From contig CM075992.1 of NCBI GenBank assembly GCA_038087875.1, positions 12,774,001 to 12,838,000 of the forward strand: a stretch of DNA of 64,000 bases, given 5' to 3'. Origin of the DNA: Malacoraja senta (lineage: Eukaryota). Positions within the stretch are counted from its first letter, which is position 1. The number at the start of each line of letters is the position of its first letter. Shown here piece by piece: positions 20,801 through 55,629 of this stretch. The translations under genes and the position numbers were made by a program. Below the pieces are notes generated by a model that saw nothing but the letters and a program-made list of their open reading frames with translations, was not told where the DNA came from and searched no databases.

Positions 20801-21084
20801 CCGTAACGAAAGGGGGTTTCCTCAAAGTCGGCAGCTCCAGCTTCATTGTTCCTGGAAGATCCAGCCCGTCGGCTCTGGAGGTCATCTCGGGGTTTCCAGG
20901 TACCGTATCTGGGTTCCTCAGTCGGGTCCGGAGTTTTACAGCCAGCGTGGGAACATTTAAAGTCCGAAACGGCACCGTTTTCTGCCGTTTTCCAGATCCA
21001 GGTGACTTGATTGAATTTGTACCTAAGCCTTGTAGGTTCTGGTGCTCCGCAAAAGTCGCCGCAGGCAGGCGCCATCTTCGGATT
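17865..21084 (-). mobile_element. Near full-length but frameshifted Rex1/Babar-clade LINE (APE endonuclease + RT)
   Basis: Overlapping ORF pieces give LPTILPANVQSLENK and CFTETWL (APE), [56 protein letters not shown] and KFTDDT. The 3' end has aataaa and a (cttgaa)n-like tail at ~17865-17885. Confidence 0.92.
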
Positions 21085-21209
21085 CTTACGAGAGGCCTGG
21101 TCCTCCAACGCAACCCATTCCCCAACGCAATATTCCACCACTCACCCATAGCCCTTAACTGCGCAGGCACGGCTCATTTCCCCTCATCCCCAGTACTCCC
21201 TATCCCTCC

Positions 21210-22553: not shown

Positions 22554-22775
22554 CTAGACTGTGGGACCCATTGGGTCCCAGCATCACACGGGAGGGCTGG
22601 TCACCAACGCAATATTCCACCTCTCCACCAATTCCAATATTGCTCGCCAGTGGGGGGGGGGGGGGCTTTCTGTTGCGCTGGTATGGGTGTTGCGGGCCGA
22701 AGGTACTGGTTTCCAGAGGGCTAGCATAGAATGGATCCTTGGGCTGGCTGCCAACTTTTGCAACGATTTTAAAAG
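22554..22775 (-). mobile_element. Helitron 3' terminus leading directly into satellite 1
   Basis: a|ctagac at 22554 with the perfect hairpin gggaccc-att-gggtccc (22563-22579). It shares ccaacgcaatattccacc with the 17835 element. Confidence 0.75.
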
Positions 22776-25700: not shown

Positions 25701-28700
25701 CTGAGAACCAAAATTCATTTTGTGAACAGAAACATTTTTTAAAAAGGCAAGGCAAACATTTGGGCAGCAAGCAGCCACCTGACAACCAAAATTCATTTTG
25801 TGAACAGAAACTTTTTTTAACAAAAGTCGAGGCAAACAATTGGGCAGTAAGCAGCCACCTGACAACCAAAATTCATTTTGAGAACACAAACTTTTTTTTT
25901 TAAATGCGAGGCAAACAATTGGGCAGCAAGCAGCCACCTGACAACCAAAATTCATTTTGTGAACACAAACATAAAAAAAGGCGAGGCAAAAAATTGGGCA
26001 GCAAGCAGCCACCTGACAACCAAAATTCATTTTGTGAACACAAACTTTTTTTAACAAAAGGCGAGGCAAACAATTGGGCAGCAAGAAGCCACCTGACAAC
26101 CAAAATTAATTTTGTGAACACAAACTTTTTTTTAAAAAGGCGAGGCAAACAATTGGGCAGCAAGAAGCCACCTGACAACCAAAATTAATTTTGTGAACAC
26201 AAACTTTTTTTTAAAAAGGCGAGGCAAACAATTGGGCAGCAAGCAGCCACCTGACAACCAAAATTCATTTTGTGAACACAAACATAAAAAAAGGCGAGGC
26301 AAAAAATTGGGCAGCAAGCAGCCACCTGACAACCAAAATTCATTTTGTGAACACAAACTTTTTTTTTTTTTAAACGCGATGCAAACAATTGGGCAGCAAG
26401 CAGCCACCTGACAACCAAAATTCATTTTGGGAACACAAACTTTAAAAAAAAAGGCGAGGCAAACAATTGGGCAGCAAGCAGCCACCTGAGAACCAAAATT
26501 CATTTTGTGAACACAAACTTTTTTTTTTTAAGGCGAGGCAATCAATTGGGCAGTAAGCAGCCACATGACAACCAACATTCATTTAGTGAACAGAAACTTT
26601 TTTTTAACAAAATGCGAGGCAAACAATTGGGCAGCAAGCAGCCACCTGAGAACCAAAATTCATTTTGTGAACACAACATTTTTTTTAAAAAGGTGAGGCA
26701 TACAATTGGCCAGCAAGCAGCCACCTGACAACCAAAATTCATTTTGTGAACACAAACATGTTTTCAAAAAATGGCAAGGCAAACAATTGGGCAGCAAACA
26801 GCCACCTGACAACCAAAATTAATTTTGAGAACACAAACTTTTTTTTTTTAAAAGGCGAGGCAAACAATTGGGCAGCAAGCAGCCAGCTGAGAACCAAAAT
26901 TCATTTTGTGAACAGAAACATTTTTTAAAAAGGCAAGGCAAACATTTGGGCAGCAAGCAGCCACCTGACAACCAAAATTCATTTTGTGAACAGAAACTTT
27001 TTTTAACAAAAGTCGAGGCAAACAATTGGGCAGTAAGCAGCCACCTGACAACCAAAATTCATTTTGAGAACACAAACTTTTTTTTTTTTAAAGGCGAGGC
27101 AAACAATTGGGCAGCAAGCAGCCAGCTGACAACCAAAATTCATTTTGTGAACAAAAATTAAAAAAAAAAAGGCGAGGCAAACAATTGGGCAGCAAGCAGC
27201 CACCTGATAACCAAAATTCATTTTGTGAACACAAACTTTTTTTAACAAAAGGCGAGGCAAACAATTGGGCAGCAAGAAGCCACCTGACAACCAAAATTAA
27301 TTTTGTGAACACAAACTTTTTTTTAAAAAGGCGAGGCAAGCAATTGGACAGCAAGCAGCCAACTGACAACCAAAATTCATTTTGTGAACACAAACTTTTT
27401 TTTTTAAATGCGAGGCAAACAATTGGGCAGCAAGCAGCCACCTGACAACCAAAATTCATTTTGTGAACACAAACATAAAAAAAGGCGAGGCAAAAAATTG
27501 GGCAGCAAGCAGCCACCTGACAACCAAAATTCATTTTGTGAACACAAACTTTTTTTTTTTAAACGCGATGCAAACAATTGGGCAGCAAGCAGCCACCTGA
27601 CAACCAAAATTCATTTTGGGAACACAAACTTTTTTTTTTTAAGGCGAGGCAATCAATTGGGCAGTAAGCAGCCACATGACAACCAACATTCATTTAGTGA
27701 ACAGAAACTTTTTTTTTAACAAAATGCGAGGCAAACAATTGGGCAGCAAGCAGCCACCTGAGAACCAAAATTCATTTTGTGAACACAACATTTTTTTTTT
27801 TAAAAGGTGAGGCATACAATTGGCCAGCAAGCAGCCACCTGACAACCAAAATTCATTTTGTGAACAAACTTTATTTTTTTTAAAGGCGAGGCAACAATAG
27901 GGCAGCAAGCAGCCAACTGACAACCAAAATTCATTTTGTGAACACAATCTTTAAAAAAAAAAAAAGGCGAGGTAAACACAATTGGGCAGCAAGCAGCCAC
28001 CTGACAACCAAAAATGGTTTTGTGAACACAAACATTTTTAAACAAAAGGCGAGGCAAACAATTGGGCAGTAAGCAGCCACCTGACAACCTAGACTGTGGA
28101 ACAGCATCCCCTTTCCCATCAGAACTGTCCCCTCCATAGACTCTTTTAAGTCAAGACTAAAGATTTATCTATATTCCCAAGCCTTTCCTGACGTCCTCTG
28201 AGTGAGGGCTACATGTATATATGTATGTAGTTTGTTCGGTTTGTGCTATTCTTATAACAAATGTAAAGCACTTTGGCCAACGAGAGTAGTTTTTTAAATG
28301 TGCTATATAAATAAATGTGACTTGACTTGATAACCAAAATTCATTTTGTGAACACAATTGTGAAAAAATTGTGTTCACAAAATGAATTTTGGTTGTCAAG
28401 TCAAGTCAAGTCACATTTATTTATATAGCACATTTAAAAATTGTGAACAAACTTTTTTTTTTTAAAGGGCACGTCAAACAATTGGACAGCAAGCAGCCAC
28501 CTGACAACCAAAATTCATTTTGTGAACAGAAACATTTTATAAAAAGGCAAGGCAAACATTTGGGCAGCAAGCAGCCACCTGACAACCAAAATTCATTTTG
28601 TGAACAGAAACTTTTTTAAACAAAAGTCGAGGCAAACAATTGGGCAGTAAGCAGCCACCTGACAACCAAAATTCATTTTGAGAACACAAACTATTTTTTT

Positions 28701-30120
28701 TTTAAAGGCGAGGCAAACAATTGGGCAGCAAGCAGCCAGCTGACAACCAAAATTCATTTTGTGAACAGAAATTAAAAAAAAAAAGGCGAGGCAAACAATT
28801 GGGCAGCAAGCAGCCACCTGAGAACCAAAATTCATTTTGTGAACACAAACATAAAAAAAGGCAAGGCAAACAATTGGGCAGCAAGCAGCCACCTGAGAAC
28901 CAAAATTCATTTTGTGAACACAAACTTTTTTTTTTAAGGCGAGGCAATCAATTGGGCAGTAAGCAGCCACATGACAACCAACATTCATTTAGTGAACACA
29001 AACTTTTTTTAAACAAAAGGCGAGGCAAACAATTGGGCAGCAAGCAGCCACCTGACAACCAAAATTCATTTTGTGAACACAACATTTTTTTTTTAAAGGT
29101 GAGGCAAACAATTGGCCAGCAAGCAGCCACCTGACAACCAAAATTCATTTTGTGAACACAAACTTTATTTTATTTAAAGGCGAGGCAACAATAGGGCAGC
29201 AAGCAGCCAACTGACAACCAAAATTCATTTTGTGAACACAATCTTTAAAAAAAAAGGCGAGGCAAACAATTGGGCAGCAAGCAGCCACCTGACAACCAAA
29301 AATGGTTTTGTGAACACAAACATTTTTAAATAAAAGGCGAGGCAAACAATTGGGCAGTAAGCAGCCACCTGACAACCTAGACTGTGGAACAGCATCCCCT
29401 TTCCCATCAGAACTGCCTCCTCCATCGACTCTTTTAAGTCAAGTAAAGATGTATCTATACTCCCAAGCCTTTCCTGACGTCCTCTGAGTGAGGGCTACAT
29501 GTATATATGTATGTAGTTTGTTCTGTTTGTGCTATTCTTATAACAAATGTAAATCACTTTGGCCAATGAGAGTAGTTTTTTAAATGTGCTATATAAATAA
29601 ATGTGACTTGACTTGTCTTGACAACCAAAATTCATTTTGTGAACACAATTGTGAAATAATTGTGTTCACAAAATGAATTTTGGTTGTCAAGTCAAGTCAA
29701 GTCAAGTCACATTTATTTATGTAGCACATTTAAAAATTGTGAACAAACTTTTTTTTTTAAAGGGCAAGGCAAACAAATGCACAGCAAACAGCCACCTGAC
29801 AACCAAAATTCATTTTGTGAACACAAACTTTTTTAAAAAAAGGCGAGGCAAACAATTGGGCAGCAAGAAGCCACCTGATGACCAAAATTCATTTTGTGAA
29901 CACAAACTTTTTTTTAAAAAGGCGAGGCAAACAATTGGGCAGCAAGCAGCCACCTGACAACCAAAATTCATTTTATGAAGACAAACTTTTTTTTTTTTTA
30001 AAGGCGAGGCAAGCAATTGGACAGCAAGCAGCCAACTGACAACCAAAATTCATTTTGTGAACACAAACTTTAAAAAAGGCGAGGCAAACAATTGGGCAGC
30101 AAGCAGCCACCTGACAACCA
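22775..30120 (+). repeat. Satellite 1: ~75-80 bp monomer tandem array with ~1.0-1.2 kb higher-order repeats
   Basis: Core ggcgaggcaaacaattgggcagcaagcagccacctgacaaccaaaattcattttgtgaacacaaac plus a variable TnAm linker. Near-identical ORF-track translations recur at 23913/24947/26132 (offsets 1034 and 1185). Confidence 0.95.
23540..23793 (+). mobile_element. L2-like LINE 3' end in satellite 1 (copy 1; others at 28090-28328 and 29378-29619)
   Basis: Translates approximately as RLWNSIPFP..SIDSFKSRLKIYLYSQAF, followed by tgtaaagcactttgg...aaatgtgctatataaataaa and a (gactt)n tail. Confidence 0.8.
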
Positions 30121-30712: not shown

Positions 30713-32843
30713 CAATTCAGGATGCAGCAAGGGACGGAAATTCAGGATGTGGAAAGGTACAAAAATTCAGGGTTCGAAAAGGTACGAAAATTCAGGACGC
30801 TAAAACGGAGGAAAATTTTGGACCCAAAAAGCACTGAAAATTCACCATTTGTAAAGGGTGACAATGTCAGGACGCGAAAAGCGAGAAAATTTTAGCAGAT
30901 GAAAGGCGACAAAAATTCAGCCTGTGAAAAGTGATGAAAATTCAGCATGAAAAAACCAACGAAAATTCAGCACGCAAAAAGCGAGGAAAATTCAGGCACG
31001 AAAGGCGACGAGAATTCAAAACGCCAAAAGCAATGTAAATTCAGGATGTAAAAAGCGATGAAATTTCAGGACGCATAATCGACGACAATTCAGGGCGCAT
31101 AAAACGACAAAATTTCAGGACGTGAAAAGCGACGAAATTTCAGCACATGAAAAGCGACGAAAATTCAGCCTGTGAAATGCGACGAAAATTCAGCCTGTGA
31201 AAGCGATAAAAAATCAGGACGCTGGAATGGAGGAAAAATGTGGATGCAAAAAGCACCGAAAATTCAGCATGTGAAAAGCGACGAACCTAGACGTATACAG
31301 TGACGAAATTTCAGCACGTGAAAAGAGAGCAAAATTCAGCATGCAAAACCGACGAAAATTCAGTACGCAAAAAGCGACGAAAATTTAGGACGCCAAAGAC
31401 AACGAAAATTCAAGATGCCAAAAGCAATGTAAATTCAGGATGCAAAAAGCGAAGAAATTTCAGCACGTGAAAAGTGACGAAATTTCAGCATGCGGAAAGC
31501 AATGGAAATTCAGCACGCGAAAAGCAAAAAAAATAAGCACACGAAAGTGATGAAAATTCAGGACACGAAAAGCAACAAAAATTTAGGACATGAAACGCGA
31601 CAACCATTTAGGATGCGAAACGGCATTAAAATTCAGGACGCAGAAAGGTAGGAAAATTCAGGGTTCGAAAAGTACAAAAATTCAGGACGCTAAAATGGAG
31701 GAAAATTTTGGACGCAAAATGCGATGAAAATTCAGCATTTGAAAACGTGGAAAATGTCAGGACGCGAAAAGCGACTAAATTTCAGGACGCGAAAAGCAAC
31801 AAAACTTCAAGGACGTGAAACGCGACAAACATTTAGGACGCAAAACGGGGTGAAAATTCAGGATGCAGAAAGGGACAAAAATTCAGGATGCGGAAAGGTA
31901 CGAAAATTCAGGGTTCGAAAAGGTACGAAAATTCAGGACGCTAAAACGGAGTACAATTTTGGACGCAAAACGCGACGAAAATTCAAAACGCCAGAAGCAA
32001 TGTAAATTCAGGATGCAAAAAGCGACGAAATTTCAGGACGCGTAAAGCGATGAAATTTCAGTACGAGAAAAGCGACGAAACTTCAGGACGCATAAAGCGA
32101 CGAAATTTCAAGACGTGTAAAGCGACGAAATTACAGCACAAGGAAAGAGACGTAAATTAAAAATGCCAAAAGCAATGTAAATTCAGGATGCAAAAGCGAC
32201 GAAATTTCAGGACGTGTAAAGCGACGAAATTTCAGGATGAGATAAGCGACAAAACTTCAGGACTCATAAAGCGACGAAATTTCAGGACGTGTAAAGCGAC
32301 GAAATTACAGCACAAGGAAAGAGACGTAAATTAGTAAGATTAAACGAGAACTTACCTAAGTTTGAAGTTTGATCTTTATTTTATGAGGAGTTACGTAGGT
32401 GATTACGTGAAGAACCCCGCCAGTGCGCCTGCGCATCAATCTTCAAAGCAGCGGTGTGAAATCACAAAAAACAACAACCGAAGTAATATAGTCTCATAAT
32501 AAAACGAGTAATACAAGAACTTCCATCTGACCTTTATGATAGTGGGTAGGGTCGTGGTGGGCACGTAATCACCTACGTAACTCCTCATAAAATAAAGATC
32601 AAACTTCAAACTTAGGTAAGTTCTCGTTTAATCTTACTATTTTACTTCGGAGTCACGTGAGTGACTACGTGAAGATTTTAAAGCTTTGTGATTTCATGCC
32701 GTGGATCAATCCCGGCTTCTCACTGCATAGATTGACTCGGAACGAGAATAATCAATCATGCATTCATAATAACATTTGTACCACAAATGCAGTATTTCAT
32801 TTCAATAATGAAATGAATCAGATCCCCTTTAAACCAGAGGAAT

Positions 32844-33703
32844 TTACACAGAACATAAAATAGTTTCTGCAAACAACCCCGCATTAACAATAGGCCGATG
32901 GTAAAAATGTTGAAACATCAACTCATTGGACCACCCGGCGGCTGCGAGGATATGGTCGACGGGGCCGTCTTTTGCCCTGGCCGCCGACGTTTCTGCTGCC
33001 CTAGCCGAGTGAGACGTAAAAACATAAGTGTTAATACCAGCAGCTGTTAAGACTTCTTTTATCCATCTGGAAATAGTCTGTATTGAAACTCTCTTGTGTG
33101 GTTTCTTGTGTGTGATCAACAACCCAGTTTCCGTATTCTCAAATTCTTTGTGACCTCAATGTATTGTAATAAATATGTCTTAATACAGAGACATGGATCA
33201 TTTGGATATGCTGCTAGCATAATTTTAAATCCTGTCACACCTGGGATAATTTAGTTTAGTAGGTCAATATAGAATGTAACCTTGTCTTCAGTTACTTCCA
33301 TACTGTCTATTTGTAATTTTCCAAGTGTTTGCACTCGTTGTGCTGTCACTCATGCCATAAGCATGAATACTTTCATACTGAGCTTGACCAAAGGTAAAGA
33401 CACACTTGATGACCATTCATGAAGTAGTTTCAGTACCACACTTACATCCCAGATTGTCACGTACCTAGGTTTCGGTGGTTTGGAATTAAAGATTCCTTTC
33501 ATTAGTCTGGAAACAATTGGGTGTGACCCAATTGAGTTTCTTTCTGAATCCAGAACCAAATATGAGGACAATGCACTTCTGGCTGAATTAATTGCACTAC
33601 AACTCAGACCTTCATCATAATAAAGTTTTGACAGAAATTCTAAACATTTGAAATATCTGCAGTACTTTATTGCACATTCTTTTGTACACAGAACTCTTCC
33701 CAT
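32844..33703 (-). pseudogene. DIRS tyrosine recombinase, frameshifted
   Basis: Pieces 33350..33703 (AINSARSALS...HPIVSRLMKGIFN..PPKPRY..WDV) and 32844..33122 (TISRWIKEVL..AGI..F.SHSAR) are separated by broken sequence. Confidence 0.88.
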
Positions 33704-34718
33704 TTCTTAATATAAGAAAGGTACTGTTTTTGAGTGCTCTTCCTCCCGGCTGCCGTAAGCATGTCCACAGTATGCTCAGACAGTCCTCGTCCCAGAAAAG
33801 GCATTCTTAAAACCTGCAAATCAACAAATCCAAACGATGATATAATGGATGTTGTTACCCTGTTACAGGGTGCAGCAATAAATTACTCCTTTTTGGGACT
33901 TTCATCAACATTTGTGTTGTTAATTCTAATATCAACAGATACCATGGCTGTATAGGCCAATCTGGTACTACCAATACCCTTGAAGCAGCATCTTGCCTGA
34001 TTTTAAGCAAACATTGGCTTATGAGGCAGAAAGGTGGAAATATATATGAAAACATACCACCCCAATGTAGCAAGAAAGCATCAATCGCCACTGCTCCTGG
34101 ATCTGGTTTCCATGAGACATATCTCAATAGCTGATGATTCAAGTCGATGTCGGTCATTCCAAATCTGATTACTATATCATTGAATACCTCTTGATTCAAC
34201 ATCCATTCTTTATTATCATGGAACTTTTCGTGACCAGGTGTCTGCTATCGTGTTCATTCTACCTGGTAGATAGATAGCTGAAAACCAAATGTTCTTTTCA
34301 ATACACCAAGATCAAAGTTGATTTAACCATTTTGTCACATGACACCGACTTAATTCCACCCATATCATTAATATAGGCAACTACTGTTGTGTTTATTAAT
34401 TTGAACTTGAACCTTCCTTTTAGTTGTGTTAGAACCATAAGCTTGGAGTCCATAGAAACCTCCTAAAAGCTCCAAATAGGTAATTCCCCATGTCTGCAGT
34501 AACACTAACTTTTCCTGATTCCATCTGCCTCCGCAGCTCCACGTTAAGTCAGTTGCACCCCCATCCTAGTGCACTGGCATCAGTTTGTAATATCATGGAA
34601 GGTTGTTCAATCAGCACTTTGCCTGAACTGCTTGAGACATGTAGAATCCACCACTGCAGCTTAGAAACAGCATTTGTTGTTACTTGCATGGTTCTATCAA
34701 AATCACCAGCATTTATTC

Positions 34719-35386
34719 TCAGTGCCTGTTCTTTAATTCTCTGCAGCTGTTGATAATGTAATGGTCCATACTGGACTGCTGGGAATCTACCAATTTTCCC
34801 AGTACTCGAGCCACCTGTCTGATTAGAGGTTTTTGCTCGTTTAACAGATTACTGCAATCTTTAATCAACTCCACCCTTTTTTCACTGGGCAAAGTAATTT
34901 GCATTTGGGCTAAATCAATTGTGAACCCCAAATAATTAATCGAGGTACATGTTTTTAACCTTGATTTCTTTGGATGAATTTAGAAACCCCCAAACTTTCA
35001 AAAGTTTGATTTTATTACTGCAACCGATGCTTCTGTTGACTGTTTTGTCCTTCCTATAATCAGGACATCATCCAGGTATGCCATTAGTACATGCCCCTGG
35101 CTCTCAGCAACCCCAGAATTGATTTTTATAAATATTCTGGAAGGGAACGTTAACCCTTTAGGCAGAGCTTTGAACTGCCCTAATTGGTTCATCCATGTAA
35201 ATTTAAAATACTCCATATCTTGCAAGTGAACAAACACTGAACAAAATGATTCAGACTTGTCAAGTCTATAATAATCCTACATCCTCCATCCTTTTTTGAT
35301 CGAGGGAATATATTTGACCCAAATTGGTGAATTTTGTAGACTGATTCTTTAATAACACCTTTTATATATAGGGTTTTGAAGCGCAA
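34719..35386 (-). pseudogene. DIRS reverse transcriptase, frameshifted
   Basis: KKDGGCRIIIDLTSLNHFV, FKALPKGL...AYLDDVLI and GFTID...ITLP lie in three separate ORF fragments. Confidence 0.88.
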
Positions 35387-38300
35387 CTTGAACCTCCATT
35401 ACTTCGCAAAGTGGAGAGTTCTGCTAGGAACATGCTGGACAGGCAAATCATAATTTGGATTGAAATCCTTGTATATTATTCAGAATTACCACATCTGAAG
35501 TAATCTTCTTCCAATGTTTATAGAAGAGACGTAATCTGCCTCCAACTTCTGGACTTAATCCAGTTAGTATGTTCCCCTGAGAACCAGGTCCACCTACCTC
35601 TTGAGTCATTTGAGTATTTTGAGATCCCTGGATTCTCCCGGAAGCACAACCACTTGTCCTTACTCCCGCTGCAGGCCGCCAGCTACGTCCCTGCGTTGAT
35701 GAGCGACTTGGTCCTGGTCTAGGATCCGTATGACGTCTGAAAGGATACTTCCTCTTTACAGACTTTGCAACCATTGATGTATTTATCAATCCTGTTTTCG
35801 CTTCATCTTCCAACTCTTTAATACGTCTCCCGAGATCTCTCCAAAGAGTAAGTTGGGTAATTGTATATTACTTGGTTTGCAGAGTGCTGCGAATTTCGGA
35901 TTCATAGTAGACCGTATAGCACTTTCCTCAGATAATTGATCTCGAAGTGGGTGCTGCATAGCAACCCCAGTGCTTGCTGATGCAACTTCGTCAATTTTTG
36001 GTTGTTACCTGCTATTCTGGTAAAAGCAGTTATTCCAGAACCCAGCAGCTTTAATATTCTCTGCAACTGATTCCAGATAATTTGATTCACTGCTGCTGCT
36101 TTCAGCAACCCACAGTTACTTCTTGCAGTCTCATCCATTTCCAGCTGTTCCAGCAAATGGTAAACCAAGTAATTTATTAAGGAGGCCAGTTCTTCTCCTA
36201 ATGGCTCTCCTGACCCTGACGGGGCAGCGAATCCTACTGCCAGGGGTGGAACATCTGGCAGCTGCCGTTCATCGCCTTGTACAGCCTCACCGTCAGAGTC
36301 GGGGTCTGAAATCTCATGACCCGTAGCACGCTCCTCATTCCTGAGGGTGCATTCCATCAGCCCTGAGCCAGGTGCTGTTAAGCTGCTCCTGCAGCTTGGA
36401 TTACAGTACACTCCTTCCTGAGTGAACTTTGCTCCAACAGCCTATGAAAAAGGCTTTCTATTTGGACAATACGCTCGAAAGCAGTATCTAGCCCTGTACC
36501 AGGAGCTGTTTGAGCTGTTTCCAGCAGCTTGGCTTTCAGAACACTCCTCTCTGAGTGAACTTTGCTCCAACAGCCTATGTAAAAGGCTTTCTATTTGGGC
36601 AATACGCTCGAAAGCAGTATCTAGCCCTGGAGCTACTTCCATTGCCTGGGACTCCCTCTGTTGGGATTTAAACTTTGTCTTTTGCCCGACAGGCGCTGAC
36701 TGTGTTTTCACCAGCCCCAGGTCCACAGTCGCTATGCTCACCGCTGGCGACTGTACCGGGGTTTAGAGGCGGTTGGTCTCTAACCGCGGACTCTCGACTT
36801 TCCCGACATCTGTCGGCTGTGTCGCTCGCCTCTTCCCCCTGTCCGTTTTTTCCATGGCGTCTGTGGAAAAAATCCCCATATACCCACAGTAAACGGACCT
36901 GGAAAACCTGAAAAAAGTTTTTACTTACCTTGTAGTTGAAAAACTACAAACCACTTGAGGAGCACTGCTCCTCACGTCCGTTTGCGTCAAGGTGTCTGAC
37001 GTAATGACGCGCAGGCGCACTGGCGGGGTTCTTCACGTAGTCACTCACGTGACTCCGAAGTAAAATCAAAATGCCAAAAGCAATGTAAATTCAGGATGCA
37101 AAAAGCGACGAAATTTCAGGATGCGTAAAGCGACAAAATTTCAGTGCGAGAAAAGCGACGAAACTTCAGGACGCATAAAGCGACAACATTTCAGGACGTA
37201 AAAAGCGACGAAATTTCAGCACATGAAAAGCGACGAAAATTCAAAACGCAAAAGCAATGTAAATTCAGGATGCAAAAGCGCCGAAATTTCAGGACCTGTA
37301 AAGCGACGAAATTTCTGGATGAGAAAAACTATGAAACTTCAGGAGTCAGAAAGCAACGAAATTTCAGGACCTGTAAAGCGACGTAATTTCAGCACATAAA
37401 AAGCGACGAAAATTCAAAATGCCAAAAGCAATGTAAATTCAGGATGAAAAAAACGACGAAATTTCAGGATGCGTAAAGCGACAAAATTTCAGGACAAAAC
37501 TTCAGGATGCATAAAGTGATGACATTTCAGGACGTGAAAAGCGACAAAATTTAAGCACATGAAAAGCGACGAAAATTCAGCCTATGAAAAGCGATTCAAA
37601 TTCAGTACGCGGAAAGCGACGAAAATTCAGCCCATGAAAAGTGACAAAAATTCAGGACGTGAAAGGCAATGAAAATTCAAAATGCCAAATGCGACGTAAT
37701 TTCAGCAAGAGATACGTGATGAAATTTCAGCACTGGATAAGTGACGAAATTTCAGCACGTGAAAAGCTAGGAAAATTCAGGATGCAAAAAACGACGAAAA
37801 TTCTGCACGCGAAAAGTGACAAAATTTCAGCATGCGGAAAGCAATGAAAATTCAGCACGCGAAAAGCAAAAAAATCAACACACGAAAAGTGACGAAAATT
37901 CTGGACTAAAAAGCTAAAAAAAATCAGGACATGAAACGCGACAAACATTTAGGACGCGATACGGGATAAAAATTCAGGACGCAGAAAGGGACAAAAATTC
38001 AGGATGCGGAATGGTACAAAAATTCAATGTTCGAAAAGGTACGAAAATTCAGGACGGTAAAACGGAGGAAAATATTGGATGCAAAAAACGACGAAAATTC
38101 AGCATTTGAAAACGGGGGAAATGACAGGATGTGAAAAGCGACGCAATTTCAGGACGTGAAATGCGACGAGATTTTAGCACAAGAAAATCGACAAAAATTT
38201 AGCACGCAAAAATTGACGAAAATTCACCATGCCAAAGGGGACGAACCTTCTGGACGTGAAAAGTGAAGAAATTTCAGCACGCAAAAAGAGAGAAAAATTA

Positions 38301-41300
38301 AGCATGCAAAAAGCGACGAAAATTCAGGATGCAAAAAGTGACTAAATTTCAGGACGTGTAAAGCGACGAAATTTCAGGATGAGAAAAGCGACAAAACTTC
38401 AGGACTCATAACGCGACGAAATTTCAGGACATGAAAAGTGACGAAATTTCAGCACATGAAAAGCGACGAACATTCAGCCTGTGAAAAGCGATGAAAATTC
38501 AGCATGCAAAAAGCGACAATAATTCAGCACACAAAAAGCGACGAAAATTCAGGACGAGAAAGGCGTCGAAAATTCAAAACCACAAAAGCAATGTAAATTC
38601 ATGATGCAAAAAGTGACGACATTTCAGGATGCTTAAAGCGACGAAATTTCAGGACACATAAAGCGATGACATTTCAGGACTTGAAAAGCGACGAAAATTC
38701 AGCACAAGTAAAGTGACAAAAATTCAGGATGCATAAAGCATAAAGTGATGAAATTTCAGCTCAGGATAAGTGATGAAATTTCAGCACAGGAAAAGTGATG
38801 AAATTTCAGCACGCGAAAAGTGAGGAAAATTCAGCATGCAGAAAGCGACGAAAATTCAGGATGTGAAATTCGACGAGATTTTAGCACATGAAAAGTGACA
38901 AAAGGCAAAAGGCGATGAGAATTAAAAACGGCAAAAGCAATGTAAATTCAGCATGCAAAAAGTGACGAACCTTGTCGTGAAAAGTGACTACATTTCAGCA
39001 CATGAAATGAGATGAAACTTCAGCATGCAAAAAGCGACGAAATATCAGCACGCAAAAAGCAACGAAATTTCAGGACTCGTAAAGCGACGAAATTTCAGGA
39101 TGAGAAAAGCGACGAAACTTCAGGACTCATAAAGCGACGAAATTTAAGGACACGATACAGCCTGTGAAAAGTGATGAAAATTCAGCATGCAAAAAGCAAC
39201 GAAAATTCAGCACGCAAAAGGCTACGAAAATTCAGGACGCAAAAGGCGACGAGGATTAAAAACGCCAAAAGCAATGTAAATTCAGGATGCAAAAAGAGAC
39301 GAAACTTCAGGATGCGTAAAGCAACAAAACTTCGGGATGCATAAAGCGACGGAATTTCAGGACGTGAAAAGCGACGAAATTTCAGCACATGAAAAGCGAC
39401 GGAAATTCAAAACGCCAAAAGCAATGTAAATTCAGGATGCAAAATGCGACGAAATTTCAGGATGCGTAAAGCAACAAAATTTCAGGATGAGAAAAGCGAC
39501 GAAATTTCAGGACGCGTAAAGCGACAGAATTTCAGCATGTGGAAAGCAATGAAAATTCAGCACGGGTAAAGCAAAAAAAATCTGCACACGAAAAGTGACG
39601 AAAATTCAGGACGCGAAAAGCTACAAAAATTCAGGACGTGAAACGCGACAAACATTTAGGATGCGAAACGGGATGAAAATTCATGACGCAGGAAGGGACA
39701 AAAATTCAGGATGCGGAAAGGTACGAAAATTCAGGGTTTGAAAAGTTAAGAAAATTCAGGACGCTAAAACGGAGGAAAATTTTGGACGCAAAAAGCGACG
39801 TAAATTCAGCATTTGAAAACAGGGAAAATGTCGAAGCGAAATGCGACGAAATTTCAGGACGTGAAATGCGACGAGATTTTAGCACAAGAAATGCGACAAA
39901 AATTCTGCACGCAAAAAGTAACGAAAATTCAGCATGTGAAAAGCGATGAACCTTGTGGACGTGAAAAGTGAAGAAATTTCAGCACACAAATAGAGAGTAA
40001 AATTAAGCATCCAAAAAGCGACGAAAATTCCGCACGCAAAAAGCGATGAAAATTCAGGACGCGAAAGACGACGAAAATTCAAAACGCCAGAAGCAATGTA
40101 AATTCAGGATGCAAAAAGCGATGAAATTTCAGGACGTTTATAGCGACGAAATTTCAGGCTGCAAAAAGCGACAATATTTCAGGACGCGTAAAGCGATGAA
40201 ATTTCAGCACATGAAAAGCGACGAAAATTCAGCCTGTGAAAAGCGACGAAAATTCAGCCTGTGAAAGCGACAAAAATTCAGGACGCTAAAATGGAGGAAA
40301 ATTTTGGATGCAAAAAGCGACGAAAATTCAGCATTTGAAAAGAGGGGAAATGTCATGACGCAAAAAGCACCGAAAATTCAGGACGCGGAAGACGACAAAA
40401 ATTCAAGACGCCAAAAGCAATGTAAATTCAGGATGCAAAAAGCGAAGAGATTTCAGGACGAGAAAAGCGACAAAACTTCAGGACTCATAAAGCGACGAAA
40501 TTTCAGGATGTTTAAAGCGACAAAATTTCAGCACATGGAAAGCGATGAAAATTAAAAACACCAAAAGCAATGTAAATTCAGGATGCAAAAAGCGACAAAA
40601 TTTCAGGATGCGTAAAGCGACAAAATTTCAGGATGAGAAAAGCGACGAAATTTCATGACGCGTAAAGCGACGAAATTTCAGCACGTGAAAGAGGAAAATT
40701 CAGCATGCAAAAAACGACGAAAATTCTGCACGCGAAAAGTGATGGAATTTCAGCATGCGGAAAGCAATGAAAATTCAGCAAGGGAAAAGCAAAAAATATC
40801 AGCACACGAAAAGTGACGAAAATTCAGGACGCGAAAAGCTACAAAAATTCAGGATGTGAAACGCGACAAACATTTAGGACGCGAAACGGGATGAAAATTC
40901 AGGACGCAGAAAGGGACAAAAATTCAGGATGTGGAAAGGTACGAAAATTCAGGGTTGGAAAAGGTATGAAAATTCAGGACGCTAAAACGTAGGAAAATTT
41001 TGGACACAAAACTCGACAAAAATTCAGCATTTGAAAACGGGGAAAATGTCAGGACGCGAAAAGCGACGGAATTTCAGGACGTGAAATGCGACGACATTTT
41101 AGCACAAGAAAGACGACAAAAATTCTGCACGCAAAAAGTAACGAAAATTCAGCATGTGAAAAGCGATGAACCTTCTGGACGTGAAAAGTGAAGATATTTC
41201 AGCACACAAATAGAGAGGAAAATTAAGCATGCAAAAATCGACGAAAATTCAGCACGCAAAAAGTGACGAAAATTCAGCACGCGGAAGACGTCGAAAATTC

Positions 41301-44300
41301 GAAATGCCAGAAGCAATGTAAATTCAGGATGCAAAAAGCGACGAAATTTCAGGACGTGTAAAGCGACGAAATTTCAGGATGCAAAAAGCGACGAAATTTC
41401 AGGACACGTAAAGCGACGAAATTTCAGCACACGAAAAGTGACGAAAATTCAGCCTGTGAAAAGCGATGAAAATTCAGGATGCTAAAATGGAGGAATGCAA
41501 TTTTGGTTGCAAAAAGCGACGAAAATTCAGCATTTGAAAAGAGGGGAAATGTCATGACGCAAAAAGCACTGAAAATTCAGGGCGCGGAAGACAACGAAAT
41601 TTCAACACGCCAAAAGCAATGTAAATTCAGGATGCAAAAAGCGAAGAAATTTCAGGATGAGAAAAGCGACAAAACTTCAGGACATAAAGCGACGAAATTT
41701 CAGGACGTTTAAAGCGACGAAATTTCAGCACATGAAAAGCGACGAAAATTAAAAACACCAAAAGCAATGTAAATTCAGGATGCAAAAAGCGAAGAGATTT
41801 CAGGACGAGAAAAGCGACAAAACTTCAGGACTCATAAAGCGACGAAATTTCAGGATGTTTAAAGCGACAAAATTTCAGCACATGGAAAGCGATGAAAATT
41901 AAAAACACCAAAAGCAATGTAAATTCAGGATGCAAAAAGCGACAAAATTTCAGGATGCGTAAAGCGACAAAATTTCAGGATGAGAAAAGCGACGAAATTT
42001 CATGACGCGTAAAGCGACGAAATTTCAGCACGTGAAAGAGGAAAATTCAGCATGCAAAAAACGACGAAAATTCTGCACGCGAAAAGTGACGGAATTTCAG
42101 CATGCGGAAAGCAATGAAAATTCAGCAAGGGAAAAGCAAAAAATATCAGCACACGAAAAGTGACGAAAATTCAGGACGCGAAAAGCTACAAAAATTCAGG
42201 ATGTGAAACGCGACAAACATTTAGGACGCGAAACGGGATGAAAATTCAGGACGCAGAAAGGGACAAAAATTCAGGATGTGGAAAGGTACGAAAATTCAGG
42301 GTTGGAAAAGGTATGAAAATTCAGGACGCTAAAACGTAGGAAAATTTTGGACACAAAACTCGACAAAAATTCAGCATTTGAAAACGGGGAAAATGTCAGG
42401 ACGCGAAAAGCGACGGAATTACAGGACATGAAATGCGACGACATTTTAGCACAAGAAAGACGACAAAAATTCTGCACGCAAAAAGTAACGAAAATTCAGC
42501 ATGTGAAAAGCGATGAACCTTCTGGACGTGAAAAGTGAAGATATTTCAGCACACAAATAGAGAGGAAAATTAAGCATGCAAAAAGCGACGAAAATTCAGC
42601 ACGCAAAAAGTGACAAAAATTCAGCACACGGAAGACGTCGAAAATTCAAAATGCCAGAAGCAATGTAAATTCAGGATGCATAAAGCGACAACATTTCAGG
42701 ACATGTAAAGCGACGAAATTTCAGGATGCAAAAAGCAACGAAATTTCAGGACACGTAAAGCGACGAAATTTCAGCACACGAAAAGTGACGAAAATTCAGC
42801 CTGTGAAAAGCGATGAAAATTCAGGATGCTAAAATGGAGGAATGCAATTTTGGTTGCAAAAAGCGACGAAAATTCAGCATTTGAAAAGAGGGGAAATGTT
42901 ATGACGCAAAAAGCACTGAAAATTCAGGGCGCGGAAGACAACGAAATTTCAACACGCCAAAAGCAATGTAAATTCAGGATGCAAAAAGCGAAGAAATTTC
43001 AGGATGAGAAAAGCGACAAAACTTCAGGACATAAAGCGACGAAATTTCAGGACGTTTAAAGCGACAAAATTTCAGCACATGAAAAGCGACGAAAATTAAA
43101 AACACCAAAAGCAATGTAAATTCAGGATGCAAAAAGCGACGAAATTTCAGGATGAGTAAAGCGATAAAATTTCAGGATGAGAAAAGCCACGAAATCTCAA
43201 GACGCGTAAAGCGATGAAATTTCAGCACTTGAAAGAGGAAAATTCAGCATGCACTAACGACGAAAGGGACAAAAATTCAGGATGTGGAAAGGTATGAAAA
43301 TGCAGGGTTGGAAAAGGTACGAAAATTCAGGACGCTAAAACGGAGGAAAATTTTGGACGCAAAAAGCGACGAAAATTCAGCATTTGAAAACGGGGAAAAA
43401 TGTCAGGACGTGAAAAGCGACGGAATTTCAGGACGCGAAAAGCGACGAGATTTTTGCACAAGAAAAGCGACAAAAATTCTGCACGCAAAAAGTAATGAAA
43501 ATTCAGCATTTGAAAAGCAACGAACCTTCTGGACGTGAAAAGTGAAGATATTTCAGCACACAAATAGAGAGGAAAATTAAGCATGCAAAAAGCGACGAAA
43601 ATTCAGCACGCAAAAAGTGACAAAAATTCAGCACGTGGAAGACGTCGAAAATTCAAAATGCCAGAAGCAATGTAAATTCAGGATGCATAAAGCGACAACA
43701 TTTCAGGACATGTAAAGCGACGAAATTTCAGGATGCAAAAAGCAACGAAATTTCAGGACACGTAAAGCGACGAAATTTCAGCACACGAAAAGTGACGAAA
43801 ATTCAGCCTGTGAAAAGCGATGAAAATTCAGGATGCTAAAATGGAGGAATGCAATTTTGGTTGCAAAAAGCGACGAAAATTCAGCATTTGAAAAGAGGGG
43901 AAATGTTATGACGCAAAAAGCACTGAAAATTCAGGGCGCGGAAGACAACGAAATTTCAACGCGCCAAAAGCAATGTAAATTCAGGATGCAAAAAGCGAAG
44001 AAATTTCAGGATGAGAAAAGCGACAAAACTTCAGGACATAAAGCGACGAAATTTCAGGACGTTTAAAGCGACAAAATTTCAGCACATGAAAAGCGACGAA
44101 AATTAAAAACACCAAAAGCAATGTAAATTCAGGATGCAAAAAGCGACGAAATTTCAGGATGAGTAAAGCGATAAAATTTCAGGATGAGAAAAGCCACGAA
44201 ATCTCAAGACGCGTAAAGCGATGAAATTTCAGCACTTGAAAGAGGAAAATTCAGCATGCACTAACGACGAAAGGGACAAAAATTCAGGATGTGGAAAGGT

Positions 44301-46463
44301 ATGAAAATGCAGGGTTGGAAAAGGTACGAAAATTCAGGACGCTAAAACGGAGGAAAATTTTGGACGCAAAAAGCGACGAAAATTCAGCATTTGAAAACGG
44401 GGAAAAATGTCAGGACGTGAAAAGCGACGGAATTTCAGGACGCGAAATGCGACGAGATTTTTGCACAAGAAAAGCGACAAAAATTCTGCACGCAAAAAGT
44501 AATGAAAATTCAGCATTTGAAAAGCGACGAACCTTCTGGACGTGAAAAGTGAAGAGATTTCAGCACACAGAGAGGGAAATTAAGCATGCAAAAAGCGACG
44601 AAAATTCAGCACGAAAAAGCGACGAAAATTCAGGACGCGAAAGACGACGAAAATTCAAAACGCCAGAAGCAATGTAAATTCAGGATGCAAAAAGCGACAA
44701 AATTTCAGGACGTGTAAAGCGACGAAATTTCAGGATGCAAAAAGCGACAAAATTTCAGGACGCGTAAAGCGACGAAATTTCACCACATGAAAAGCGATGA
44801 AAATTAAAAATGCCAAAAGCAATGTAAATTCAGAATGCAAAAAGCTACGAAATTTCAGGACATGTAAAGCGACAAAATATCTTGAGAAAAGCGCTGAAAC
44901 TTCGGGACGCGTTAAGCGACAAAATATCAGGATGTGAAAAGCGACGAAATTTTAGCACATGAAAAGCGACAAAAATTCTGTCTGTGAAAAGTGCTGAAAA
45001 TTCAGCATTCAACAAGCGACGAAAATTCAGGATGCAAAAAGCGACGAAATTTCAGGACGAGAAAAGCGACGAAATTTCAGGACATGAAAAGCGACGAAAA
45101 TTCAGCCTGTGAAAAGCGATGAAAATTCAGCCTGTGAAAAGCGATGAAAATTCAGTACCTGGACAGTGATGAAAATTCAGCACACGAAAAGTGACGAAAA
45201 TTCAGGATGCGAAAATCTACAAAAATTCAGGACATGAAACGCGACAAACATTTTGGACGCGAAACGGGATGAAAATTTAGGACGCAGAAAGGGACGAAAC
45301 TTCAGGATGCGGAAAGGTACGAAAATTCAGGGTTCGAAAAGGTACCAAAATTCAGGAAGCTAAAACGGAGGAAAACTTTGGACGCAAAAAGTGCCAAAAA
45401 TTCAGCATTTAAAAAGGGGGACAATGTCATGACACGAAAAGCAACGAAATTTCAGGACGTGAAATGCTACGAGATTTTAGCACGTGAAAAGCGACAAAAA
45501 TTCAGCGCGCAAAAATTGACAAAAATTCAGCATGCGAAAAGCGACGAACCTTCTTGTCGTGAACAGTGTCTAAATATCAGCACGCAAAAAGAGAGGGAAT
45601 TTCAACAGGCAAAAAGTGATGAAAATTCAGCACGCAAAAAGTGACGAAATTTCAGGACACGTAAAGCGACAAAATTTCAGGACGAGAAAAGCGACGAAAC
45701 TTCAGGACTCATAAAGCGACGAAATTTCAGGACGTGAAAAGCGACAAAATTTCACCACATGAAAATCAATAAAAATTAAAAATGCTAAAAGCAATGTAAA
45801 TTCATGATGTGAAAAGCGATGAAATTTCGTGACGTGTAAAGCGACAAAATTTCAGGACGAGAAAAGCGATGAAACTTCAGGACGCATAAATCGACGAAAT
45901 TTCAGGACGTGTAAAGCGACGAAATTTCAGCACATGAAAAGCGACGAAAATTCACCCTGTGAAAAGCGACGAAAATTCTGCCTGTGAATGTGACAAATAT
46001 TCAGGACGCTAAAATGGAGGAAAATTTTGGACGCAAAAAGCCACGAAAATTCAGCATTTGAAGAGGAAAATGTCACGACGTGAAAAGCGACGAAATTTCA
46101 TGACGTGAAATGTGACAAGATTTTAGCACAAAAAAGCGACAGAAATTCAGCACGCAAAACGCGACGAAAATTCAGCATGCAAAAAGCGACGAACCTTCTG
46201 AACGTGAAAGTGATGAAATTTCAGCACGTGAAACGAGAGGAAAATTCAGCATGCAAAAAGCGACGAAAATTCAGCACCCAAAAAGCGACGAAAATTCAGG
46301 ACGCGAAAGCCGATGAAAATTCAAGACGCCAAAAGCAATGTAAATTCAGGATACAAAAAGCGAAGAAATTTCAGGACGCATAAAGCGACGAAATTTCAGG
46401 ACGAGAAAAGCGACGAAATTTCAGGAAGAGAAAAGCGACGAAAAGCATCCTGAATTTACATTG

Positions 46464-46778
46464 AGGATAAATGCATGGTTGAAGGACTGGTGCAGAGGGC
46501 AGGGTTTCAAGTTTCTGGATCATTGGGACCTATTTTGGAGAAGGTGTGACCTGTACAAAAAGGATGGGTTGCACTTGAACCCGAGGGGGACCAATATCCT
46601 GGCGGGGAGATTTGCAAAGGCTACTGGGGAGACTTTAAACTAAAACGGTTGGGGGGAGGGACTCAAATAGAGAAAGCTAGTAGACAGTGTGTGAGGCAGA
46701 GAAGGGGAGCACTCAGACCCAACATGTAGGGTAGAAAGAAGAAAACGATAATAAATGTGTGAGCAGAGAGACATGGGG
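46464..46778 (+). mobile_element. Internal CR1 fragment: end of ORF1 SGNH/esterase domain plus linker
   Basis: RINAWLKDWCRGQGFKFLDHWDLFWRRCDLYKKDGLHLNPRGTNILAGRF* carries the DGLHL block-V motif of SGNH esterases known from CR1/L2 ORF1. Confidence 0.85.
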
Positions 46779-48568
46779 GAAATATCAGGACGCGTAAAGC
46801 GACGAAATTTCAGGACGTGAAATGCGACGAGATTTTAGCACTAGAAAAGTGACAAAAATTCAACGTGCAACAAGTGACGAAAATTCAGCATGCAAAAAGC
46901 GATGAACCTTCTGGACGTGAAAAGTGAAGAAATTTCAGCACGCATAAAGCGACGAAATTTCTGCACACGAAATATGACAAAAATTCAGCAAGGTAAAGCG
47001 ACGTAAAGTCAGGACCCGAAAAGCGACGAAACCTCAGGACGCATAAAGCGACAACAGTTTAGGACAAAAAAGCGACGCAATTTCAGCCTGCGAAAAGCAA
47101 TGAAAAGTCAGCACGTGAAAAGTGACGAGCCTTCAGTATGCGAAAAGCGACGAAAATTCAGCACGCGAAAAGCGACGAAAATTCTGGACGTGAAAGGCGA
47201 CAAAAATTCAAATCGGCAAAAGCGATTTCATTTCAGGACCTGAAAAGCGACGAAATTTCAGGATGCATAAAATCGTCTAAATTACAGGACGCAATAAGCA
47301 ACAAAATTTCAGGACAGGAAAAGGGATGAAAATTCAGCATGTGAAAAGTGATGAAAATTCAGGACACGAAAAGCGACAAAAATTCTGCATGCGAAAAGCG
47401 TCTAAAGTTCAGGACGCATGAAGCGACAAAATTTCAGGACACATAAAGCGACAACATTTCGGCATAAGAAAAGTGACGAAAATTGAGCACGCAAAAAGCG
47501 ACGAAATTTCTGCACACAATAAGTAACAAAAATTCAGGACACAAAAAGCGATGAAATTTCAGGACGCAAAATGCGACAACATTTCAGGACGTGCAAAGCG
47601 ACAAAATTTCAGCACAAGAAAAGGGACAAAAATTCAGCACACGAAAAGCGACGAAAATTCAGCACGCGAAAAGCGACGAACCTTCAGGATATGAAAATCG
47701 ATGAAATTTCATCACTCGAAACGTGACGAAAATTCAGCACGTGAAAAGTGACGAAAATTCAGCACATGAAAAGTGCCGAATATTCGGGACGCGAAAGACG
47801 ACGAAAATTCAAAACGCCAAAAGCGACATAAATTCAGCATGTGAAAAGCAACGAAAATTCATGACGAGAAAAGCGACGAAATTTCAGCACATGAAAATGG
47901 ATGAAAAGTCAGCACGTGAAAAGCGCCGAAAATGCAGCACACAAAGGGCGACGAATATTCAGTATGCGAAAAGCAATGAAAATTCAGCACGCGAAAATTG
48001 AACATTCAGCACACAAAAAGTGATGAAATGCAGGACGCAAAAGGCGACGAAAATTAAAAAAGCCAAAAGCGATGTAAATTCAGGACTCAAAATGCGATGA
48101 AATTACAGGATGCATAAAGTGACGAAATTTCAGAACCTGAAAAGTGACGAAATTTCAGCACCCGAAAAGCGACGAAAATTCAGCATGCGAAAAGCGACAA
48201 AAATTCAGCACGTGAAAAGTTAGGAACCTTCAGGATGCGAAAATCAATGAAAACTCAGCACTCGAAAAGCGACGAACCTTCAGGACAGGAAAAGCGACGA
48301 AAATTCAGCACACGAAAAGCGACGAAAATTCAACACATGAAAAGTGACGAAAATTCAGGACGTGAAAGATGACGAAAATTCAAAATGCCAAAAGGGACGT
48401 ATATTCAGGATGCTAAGAGAAACGAAAATTCCAGACAAGAAAAGCGCCGAAATATCAGGACATGAAAAACGACGCAAATTCTGCACACAAAAAGTAACAC
48501 AAATTCAGGACACAAAAAGCGATTAAATTTTCAGGACGCAAAATGTGACAAAATTGAAATCGCAAAAA

Positions 48569-53909: not shown

Positions 53910-54938
53910 ATAAATTCAGGATGCAAAAAGCGACGAAATTTCAGGACGCGTAAAGTGACAACATTTCAGTACGAGAAAAGCGACGAAACTTCAGGATTCA
54001 CAAAGCGACGAAATTTAAGTACGTGAAAAGCGACGAAATTTCAGCACATGAAAAGCGCCGAAAATTCAGCATGCAAAAAGCGACGAAAATTCAGCACGCA
54101 ATAAGCGACGAAAATTCAGGACGTGTAAAGCGACAAAATTTCAGTAAGAGAAAAGCGAGGAAACTTCAGGATTCACAAAGCGACGAAATTTCAGTACGTG
54201 AAAAGCGACGAAATTTCATGACGCGTAAAGCGACGAAATTTCAAAACGCCAAAAGAAATGTAAATTCAGGATGCAAAAAGTAACTAAATTTCAGGATGCG
54301 TAAAGCGACGAAATTTCAGGATGCGAAAAGTGATGAAAGTTCAGGACGCGAAAAGTGATGACATTTCACCCAACGAAAAACAACAAATGTTCAGGACGCA
54401 TGACGCATGATGCGACGAAGTTTCAGGACACGAAAAGCGACAACATTTCGGCAAATGAAAAAAGACGAACCTTCAGGACGTGAAAAGCAACGAAGATATA
54501 GCACGCTAAAAGTGAGGAAAATTCAGCATGCGAAAAGCAATGAAAATTCAGCACGCGAAAAGTGACGATAATTCAGGAAGCGAAAAGCTACAAAAATTCA
54601 GGACGTGAAACGCGACAAATATTTAGGACGCAAAACGGGATGAAAATTCAGGATGCAGAAAGGAGCAAATATTCAGGATGCACAAAGATACAAAAATTCA
54701 GGGTTTGAAAAGGTACGAAATTTCAGGACGCTAAAACGGAGGAAAATTTTGGACAGAAAGAGTGACGAAAATTCAGCATTTAAAAAGCGGGAAAATGTCA
54801 GGACACGAAAAGCAACAACATTTCAAGATGTGAAATGCGACAAGATTTTAGCACAAGAAAAGCGCAAAAGTTCAGCATGCAAAAAGCGACGAAAATTCAG
54901 GATGCAAAAAGTGACGAACCTCGACCTGAAAAGTGATG

Positions 54939-55500: not shown

Positions 55501-55629
55501 TCTGTGAAGGTATACCATATGCCTACATTTACTACACTAACCCATTGTAATGCCACTTGCAAGTTATAGACTTGGACCACAAAATCACTCTGTACTTCAA
55601 TGCTGTTAAGGCAGTCATGCCATTGATTG

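Follow-up and report, generated by a model that had tools for sequence, protein, structure and literature searches.

The question raised by this locus is how a retrotransposon with broken genes came to carry flawless termini. The element lies within a 64,000-nt stretch of Malacoraja senta DNA (hereafter, the window), and its features are listed in Table 1. The inverted terminal repeats (ITRs), 90% identical over 52 nt, consist of a conserved part, in which a 31-nt core matches at 31 of 31 positions (32404–32434 versus 37009–37039), and a divergent part, and the ICR near the 3′ end pairs with the 5′ terminus at its start and with the 3′ terminus at its end. The element begins with ATT and is followed, just past its 3′ end, by AAT (32332–32330), the NTT-type terminal trinucleotide without target-site duplication that, like the ITRs and the ICR, is a hallmark of DIRS1-like elements. 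An earlier note had claimed a perfect match between the ICR and both termini, and this is borne out: positions 32333–32409 agree with the reverse complement of 32562–32638 at 77 of 77 positions (self-BLAST E = 2e-34), and 37030–37066 agree with that of 32639–32675 at 37 of 37 (E = 1e-12), both far beyond chance by these E-values. The 77-bp arms are separated by just 152 nt, and the 37-bp pair by 4.35 kb. Self-comparison of the element revealed no direct terminal repeats, and membership of the Ngaro, PAT or VIPER groups was rejected, as the terminal repeats are inverted and split direct repeats are absent.

Table 1. Features of the element, its flanks and the breaks recovered in contigs of organisms B and C
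Feature	Position	Strand	Basis or remark
25-bp satellite, left flank	30714..32332	.	empty site versus unit at 32139, 39/40
Full-length DIRS1-like retrotransposon	32333..37066	-	4,734 bp; layout fits Table 3 of PMC3266345
3′ terminus (3′ ITR + right extension)	32333..32438	-	32333–32409 complementary to ICR, 77/77
ICR	32562..32675	-	37 + 77 nt; circle junction 32638/32639
Broken tyrosine recombinase (YR)	32858..33759	-	HSAR motif kept; 2 frameshifts, 3 stops
Broken pol: RT, RNase H, methyltransferase (MT)	33812..35558	-	YLDD kept in RT; RVT_1 E = 1.3e-7; 14 mapped breaks
gag-like remnant	35600..36855	-	ATG at 36855; no continuous frame; assigned by position only
133-bp tandem duplication in gag region	36359..36629	.	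89%; repeat analysis
5′ ITR	37005..37056	-	conserved core at 37009–37039; 90% to 3′ ITR over 52 nt
5′ terminus	37030..37066	-	37/37 complementary to left ICR
25-bp satellite, right flank	37067..48555	.	repeat analysis
YR frameshift	near 33130		B record 17, C record 26
YR stops, at least one of two	33253/33352		C record 26
YR frameshift	near 33646		B record 17, C record 27
YR stop	33669		C record 27, 205 nt, 0 differences
15-nt MT deletion	near 34142		B record 18, C record 28
pol frameshift	34227		C record 28
RT stop codon, unchanged	35401		B record 21

With described DIRS1-like elements (DIRS-1 of Dictyostelium; 28 elements in Piednoel et al. 2011, PMC3266345), the present element shares ITRs, a 3′-end ICR, a right extension, the ATT start and AAT end, the lack of target duplication, and the RT–RNase H–MT and YR genes together with a putative gag. 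The same source gives LgDIRS1 an ICR of 39–86 and an ITR of 31 bp, similar to the 37–77 and conserved ITR of 31 bp here, and NveDIRS6b and AmDIRS2 likewise start with ATT and end with AAT. Unlike the described elements, all mapped coding domains are broken here, and several breaks are common across organisms. The element sits inside a 25-bp satellite array without target duplication; its junctions are precise and the reconstructed empty site matches the neighboring unit at 39 of 40 positions, as expected for YR integration. Other retroelements within the window retain open frames of 343 and 380 codons.

The coding damage was mapped by frameshift-aware alignment. The pol region aligns end to end with protein P0001, which itself carries RVT_1 and a weak Dam match, at 51% identity, and with P0003 at 63%, while the YR is 47–53% identical to P0031–P0033, with a Phage_integrase match (E = 0.0024) that lies under the curated cut-off. 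Relative to P0001, pol (35558–33812) contains seven frameshifts, four stops, and deletions of approximately 100, 9 and 15 nt; with the breaks of the YR (33759–32858) relative to P0033, this amounts to 19 mapped breaks, and most of their positions recur in alignments to eight pol homologues and ten YR homologues. With six of the eight pol homologues, the stops at 35000 and 34982 appear as a frameshift pair, and the stop at 34314 in RNase H is found with five. Introns were rejected as a cause of the breaks, which are 1–2-nt shifts or deletions, and pol occupies 1,747 nt for 629 aligned P0001 residues. The 1.3-kb region standing where a DIRS1-like gag is expected (36860–35560) has a longest open frame of at most 179 codons and no gag homologue in Pfam or the homologue search (best Atlas score 0.81, uninformative), so that its breaks, unlike those of pol and YR, are not mapped by homology. 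The earlier statement that gag, RT, RNase H, MT and YR are all broken therefore stands for pol and YR, and for gag only in that a continuous frame is lacking.

The element was compared with short-read contigs of organisms A, B and C aligned to the window, none of which spans it whole. Run X5 and the small-share runs X7–X11 were left out, X1 was covered to 88%, and for organism A the comparison draws on 40 of the 263 rows of substitutions and 12 of the 34 rows of indels; break sharing was scored in B and C, a call requiring at least 31 letters on either side. Of the 19 breaks, at least 7, located in RT, MT and YR, are present in B or C contigs that are 99–100% identical to the window, while 4 are missing there and 8 are undecided, so that the disabling mutations are shared in part. 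Since no contig spans the element, these shared breaks are spread over several contigs, and their co-occurrence in a single molecule is not demonstrated. Diverged relatives (approximately 87–94% identical) are also present, and loose contig ends suggest that some of them do not carry the breaks at 34227, 34393 and 34786.

The same contigs bear on how the copies spread. Two contigs, both from organism B, provide the evidence for flank diversity, departing at the 5′ terminus (37066) into flanks unlike that of the window. Mean depth over the satellite flanks in B is 1.4 and 1.9 versus 9–46 inside the element, the right flank in C has a depth of 0.34, and in organism A the summed depth, which was not taken as copy number, is 8- to 19-fold lower in the flank bins than in the adjoining terminal bins; in B and C, terminal sequence is far deeper than the element interior. 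Organism A yielded 40,948 and 36,109 aligned contigs versus 116 in B and 96 in C, and holds a far larger family than either. At five places in X1 and at two in X2, no depth is left for the letters specific to the window, which is not read as absence of the window copy because contigs drop rare variants and X1 stands at 88%. Joints in X1 and X2 that skip approximately 4.86 kb were rejected as empty sites, as the other letters between them point to satellite contigs, and mirror 1–2-nt length variants at 32357 and 32613/32614 were excluded, ICR and terminus being ambiguous in short contigs.

The shared breaks in near-identical B and C contigs, together with the other flanks in B, indicate copying of dead templates, most probably in trans, and support the earlier proposal of a full-length non-autonomous lineage. 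It is probable that the element was copied by related intact DIRS proteins after much of the coding damage had arisen. A defective source copy would have kept its cis signals (the ITRs, the ICR and probably the promoter) and been transcribed; a helper RT would then have made cDNA from the defective transcript, the cDNA ends would have been restored with the ICR as template, and a tyrosine recombinase, also from the helper, would have integrated the circle into an ATT/AAT-type site of the satellite. Every such cycle would reset the ICR–terminus match and leave the genes unrepaired, and after insertion the copy may have gained up to approximately 1% further change. No intact close helper was found among the proteins, where the best pol homologues are 51–63% identical, none of the 150 YR matches listed exceeds 66%, and no intact DIRS copy was seen among the contigs of A, B and C. 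A 26-nt ITR pattern gave no matches in metagenome and viral contigs, and a YR fragment search returned three distant loci (24–54%).

The order of decay and insertion can be approached through the mismatch counts. Zero mismatches in 114 pairs limit the ICR–terminus divergence to at most 1.3% and thus date the copy just to within that divergence. The seven stops yield a decay estimate of approximately 6% (CI 2.5–12.7%), at which the probability of 0/114 is at most 0.004; the two do not fit, which supports coding decay before copying. The B and C contigs lack four of the 19 breaks, and hence not all of the decay predates the window copy. Decay before insertion, as the earlier note had it, is accordingly upheld by the probability of at most 0.004 and for at least seven breaks, but not for these four. 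Its “young insertion” fares less well, since the zero count sets only an upper bound, and the window copy carries at least 22 substitutions and several indels absent from the family, approximately 0.8–1.3% overall, a private change with which 0/114 is compatible (P 0.16–0.05). If all of this change followed insertion, it corresponds to 11–19 million generations, taking the epaulette-shark rate of 7e-10, and the distance is long on a chondrichthyan clock. The window copy is younger than the decay of its genes; recency in years does not follow.

This distance also sustains the reading that the family is non-autonomous but fossil, formed by a single old burst in trans around the time when A, B and C diverged and inactive since, which is quite possible without being probable. 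It differs from the favored reading of copying in trans in timing alone, so that the likelihoods given to the two overlap. The presence of the family in at least three organisms fits an old burst, whereas its far larger size in A, and the location of the insertion in a satellite with hardly any coverage in B and C, argue for activity later than the split, and part of the private change may stem from an unsampled sub-lineage.

Multiplication of a dead copy at the DNA level, by segmental duplication, satellite turnover or conversion of its interior by a dead paralogue instead of retrotransposition, with the B and C sequences as orthologues or duplicates, is improbable. The copy does sit in a satellite array, and the nearly flat depth in B and C (approximately 10–30) could mean one or a few copies; however, the window junctions are precise, the B contigs leave exactly at the terminus for other flanks while the satellite is almost uncovered in B, and the summed depth in A falls 8- to 19-fold from terminal to flank bins. 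Still less credible is the decay in place of an intact autonomous insertion whose ICR match was kept by chance or gene conversion, a reading contradicted by the sharing of breaks with B and C: the family lacks four of the breaks and at least 22 of the substitutions, and arms 152 nt apart could convert, but at least seven breaks recur in near-identical contigs, B termini have other flanks, the distant 37-bp pair is also perfect, and chance retention meets the probability of at most 0.004 given above. Assembly errors in an intact element can be virtually dismissed, for although four +1 frameshifts fall in short homopolymer runs and that at 34560 is seen neither in B or C nor in most of the depth of A, independent short-read contigs bear the same frameshifts, stops and deletion and other retroelements of the window keep their 343- and 380-codon frames, which refutes errors for the seven shared breaks and leaves them possible for single private 1-nt indels.

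Copying in trans has parallels in other elements. ETn, BARE-2 and HERV-H are non-autonomous LTR retrotransposons with mutated internal regions, and TOC1 is a split-repeat, PAT-type element. TOC1 of Chlamydomonas has been classified as a non-autonomous DIRS retrotransposon (PMC9940879), and SIRE of Trypanosoma cruzi is a truncated non-autonomous VIPER of approximately 430 bp with split direct repeats, the mobility of which has been questioned (PMC6681497). Both resemble the present element in belonging to the tyrosine-recombinase order without working proteins of their own, and differ from it in that it is of the ITR/ICR type with full-length gene remnants. Non-autonomous LTR retrotransposons can be near full length, mutated to non-coding and mobilized by an autonomous counterpart (PMC8969392), but they use integrase and LTRs, in contrast to the ITRs, ICR and tyrosine recombinase integration here. 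In Dictyostelium, the DIRS-1 RT works in trans and the element cannot do without its ICR, and trans action is also suggested for the other DIRS-1 proteins, according to the available text of PMC7192593. Inverse PCR across the circle junction was unsuccessful in that organism (PMC7192593). Thus, a trans-acting DIRS-1 RT and the non-autonomous YR elements TOC1 and SIRE are already known, and a described full-length ORF-dead family of the ITR/ICR type was not found in the literature searched, Repbase and Dfam entries being outside its scope. In Xenopus, 36 of 75 DIRS-like Repbase families of X. tropicalis and 13 of 20 of X. laevis have interrupted ORFs or incomplete repeats at the consensus level; the available main text treats these as degeneration and does not use the term “non-autonomous” (bioRxiv 10.1101/2021.08.05.455354). 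Some of these families may represent the phenomenon seen here, and DIRS consensus sequences described as “degenerate” are not necessarily old fossils.

The replication model of DIRS elements has been directly tested only in Dictyostelium, and a natural family that has spread despite dead RT, MT and YR would extend trans action to vertebrates and to the integration step. Such a family separates the cis signals (ITRs and ICR) from the genes, and comparing the ICR with the termini within many copies would provide a direct test of ICR-templated end repair. A bolder reading, offered tentatively and with some doubt, is that a full-length, fully dead DIRS1-like lineage has parasitized an intact DIRS since before several skate or ray species split, multiplied explosively in one lineage until it outnumbered its helper, and is still inserting. 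If true, this would be the first described vertebrate non-autonomous DIRS family of the ITR/ICR type, and would constitute a natural proof of the whole cycle in trans, the recombinase step included.

The element, a DIRS1-like retrotransposon, shows the structural features of such elements, its gag being a candidate placed by position. The perfect correspondence that the earlier note had claimed between its termini and internal complementary region (ICR) was borne out by self-comparison, as 32333-32409 and 37030-37066 are exact reverse complements of parts of the ICR (77/77 and 37/37, respectively); no second copy was found within the window. The ITRs show 90% complementarity across 52 nt, including a core of 31/31. 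The element interrupts the 25-bp satellite, and its excision recreates a 40-mer matching the neighbouring satellite unit at 32139 at 39 of 40 positions, so that insertion involved no target duplication. The 5' end of the element is ATT, and AAT lies directly after its 3' end, a pair also given for NveDIRS6b and AmDIRS2 in Table 3 of PMC3266345. Just past the 3' end, satellite positions 32323-32332 agree with the first 10 nt of the element (32639-32648) at 8/10, extending the inverted repeat to 87 nt, and two C contigs (C being one of three other organisms, A, B and C, with related copies) also align as far as 32648; the 8/10 likeness hints at target choice by resemblance to the circle junction. 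The satellite is well covered in A and almost uncovered in B.

Pfam detects RVT_1 (E=1.3e-7) in the element, along with Phage_integrase at E=0.0024, below its cut-off. In frameshift-aware alignments, pol shows 51% identity to its homologue P0001 across RT, RNase H, and MT and 63% to the Amblyraja radiata protein P0003, and YR shows 47-53% identity to three recombinases. The P0003 match alone points to a skate or ray as the likely host. The coding decay claimed earlier is confirmed for both genes by 19 mapped breaks (14 in pol and 5 in YR), most of which reappear against eight pol and ten YR homologues; the 35000/34982 pair is interpreted as two frameshifts by six of the eight pol homologues, and 35401 is a stop in four of the six that extend to that point. 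Because no gag homologue was detectable by Pfam and homologue searches, gag was assigned by position, and its longest frame is at most 179 codons. Contigs from each of the four aligned runs skip a 41-nt stretch of the gag region (36080-36120); the skip has full local depth in C and is rare in A.

Features of the element, its breaks, and other repeats in the window
Feature	Position	Description
Element	32333-37066	minus strand; 4,734 bp
ICR	32562-32675	reverse complement of both termini
pol frameshifts	near 35456, 34787, 34560, 34394, 34309-34324, 34227	
pol deletion with frameshift	near 35239	~100 nt
pol deletions	near 35108; near 34142	9 nt; 15 nt
pol stops	35401, 35000, 34982, 34314, 33857	
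YR frameshifts	near 33646, 33130	
YR stops	33669, 33352, 33253	
79-bp satellite	22771-30120	~83 copies plus short second block; directly upstream of 25-bp satellite
25-bp satellite	30714-54918	long, degenerate; higher-order periods 50, 75, 174 bp
LINE fragment	48527-49982	RVT_1, weak zf-RVT; in or beside satellite
GIY-YIG fragment	54823-55536	presumably Penelope-like; in or beside satellite
Non-LTR retrotransposon remnants	451-1482; 18058-21141	long RT frames, 343 and 380 codons
58-bp tandem repeat	63101-63691	10.2 copies, 98% matches, very homogeneous

All or part of the stretch occurs in 11 public runs, the best sampled-word shares being 0.78 and 0.76 in A, 0.56 and 0.50 in B, and 0.34 in C. 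Contigs, none spanning the whole element, were aligned at 85% likeness from four of 17 listed runs, yielding 40,948 (X1) and 36,109 (X2) for A, 116 for B (X3), and 96 for C (X6). Summed interior depth is ~6e4-8e5 in A and mostly 5-35 in B and C, which points to a much larger family in A, depth and contig numbers not being a copy number. Two B contigs continue beyond the 5' terminus at 37066 into long sequences that differ from the flanks in the window, and these sequences agree with each other at 0.77 and are thus not fully alike. Given the differing B flanks and the low flank-bin depth (1.4 and 1.9 in two bins for B; 0.34 in the right bin for C), the B and C contigs are best read as paralogues at other loci.

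Breaks were scored in B and C by comparing the length, gap count, and substitution count of each listed contig with the variant rows, which were listed for 40 of 263 substitutions and 12 of 34 indels. The shared disablement that the earlier note proposed to look for held for at least seven of the 19 breaks among the listed contigs and failed for four, with eight undecided. In B record 17 (32708-33838), which carries 10 substitutions, a single listed indel at 33266 accounts for all 3 gap letters, leaving both YR frameshifts in place. C record 27 shows no difference from the window over 33542-33746, a span that takes in stop 33669 and the frameshift near 33646. The frameshift near 33130 recurs in C record 26, as does, since its unlisted substitutions number one, stop 33253, stop 33352, or both. 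The 15-nt MT deletion is common to B record 18 and C record 28, a contig without gaps that also shares frameshift 34227, and stop codon 35401 is unchanged in B record 21, as both its substitutions fall elsewhere. The ~100-nt RT deletion, tallied as undecided, is probably also in B, where a contig aligns over at least 56 letters on each side of 35213 and only ~30 past the junction. The four breaks missing from the B and C contigs are stop 34314, frameshift 34560, an 11-nt deletion near 35456, and the one near 35108.

Seven stops in 857 codons correspond to ~6% decay (95% CI 2.5-12.7%), at which the probability of zero mismatches in 114 pairs is at most 0.004; counting just four stops, it reaches up to 0.11 at the lower bound. 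The copy is younger than the decay of its genes, and to this extent the earlier argument from zero mismatches to youth stands. It does not extend to recency: the statistic is valid in one direction, and zero mismatches bound the copy's own divergence only at 1.3%. Of the 40 substitution rows listed, 22 set the window apart from at least 94% of the depth in X1 and 88% of that in X2, the eight listed B contigs differ from it at 42 of 3,244 nt (1.3%), and a word share of 0.78 translates to 0.8% divergence. At 0.8-1.3%, zero mismatches have a probability of 0.16-0.05, and at the epaulette shark rate of 7e-10 per generation (PMC10587355) this divergence equals 11-19 million generations, if all change followed insertion; RT error or descent through an unsampled sub-lineage may account for part of it. 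At 32357 and 32613-32614, the 3' terminus and ICR show mirror length variants of 1 and 2 nt in A, B, and C; both sites share one length form in the window, and B depth shows the 2-nt shorter form.

Non-autonomous DIRS elements were found by name only for the Chlamydomonas v6 genome in a literature search lying outside Repbase and most subscription papers, and neither an ORF-dead ITR/ICR family nor a skate DIRS study appeared in the literature searched, including passages of PMC8498967, PMC12477816, and PMC9341512. Interrupted ORFs are described for many Xenopus DIRS consensus sequences in bioRxiv 2021.08.05.455354, whose Table 1 and supplements may bear on novelty. TOC1 (PMC9940879) and SIRE (PMC6681497) are known non-autonomous members of the order, non-autonomous LTR elements turned non-coding by mutation are standard (PMC8969392), and DIRS-1 of Dictyostelium requires its ICR and has an RT that acts in trans, with trans action of the other proteins suggested by cDNA transformation (PMC7192593).

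The earlier note had proposed a non-autonomous lineage using an active partner; the shared breaks support the lineage, and protein searches found no close intact relative as helper. Relatives at ~87-94% identity exist in A and C, and contig loose ends at 34227, 34393, and 34786 suggest that some lack the frameshifts there. One C contig at 93% ceases to align at 35241, where the RT deletion lies, leaving 28 letters unaligned if record coordinates follow the contig strand. In the ICR/terminus bin (32519-32686), depth exceeds that of the interior ~10-fold in B and ~100-fold in C, possibly owing to other DIRS families or to short derivatives whose ends are similar. As its breaks are shared with paralogues and its ends are precise at a site of its own, the copy points to an already broken template, for which RT and recombinase would have been supplied from elsewhere; the best reading, and a probable one, is that of a non-autonomous lineage that was copied in trans.
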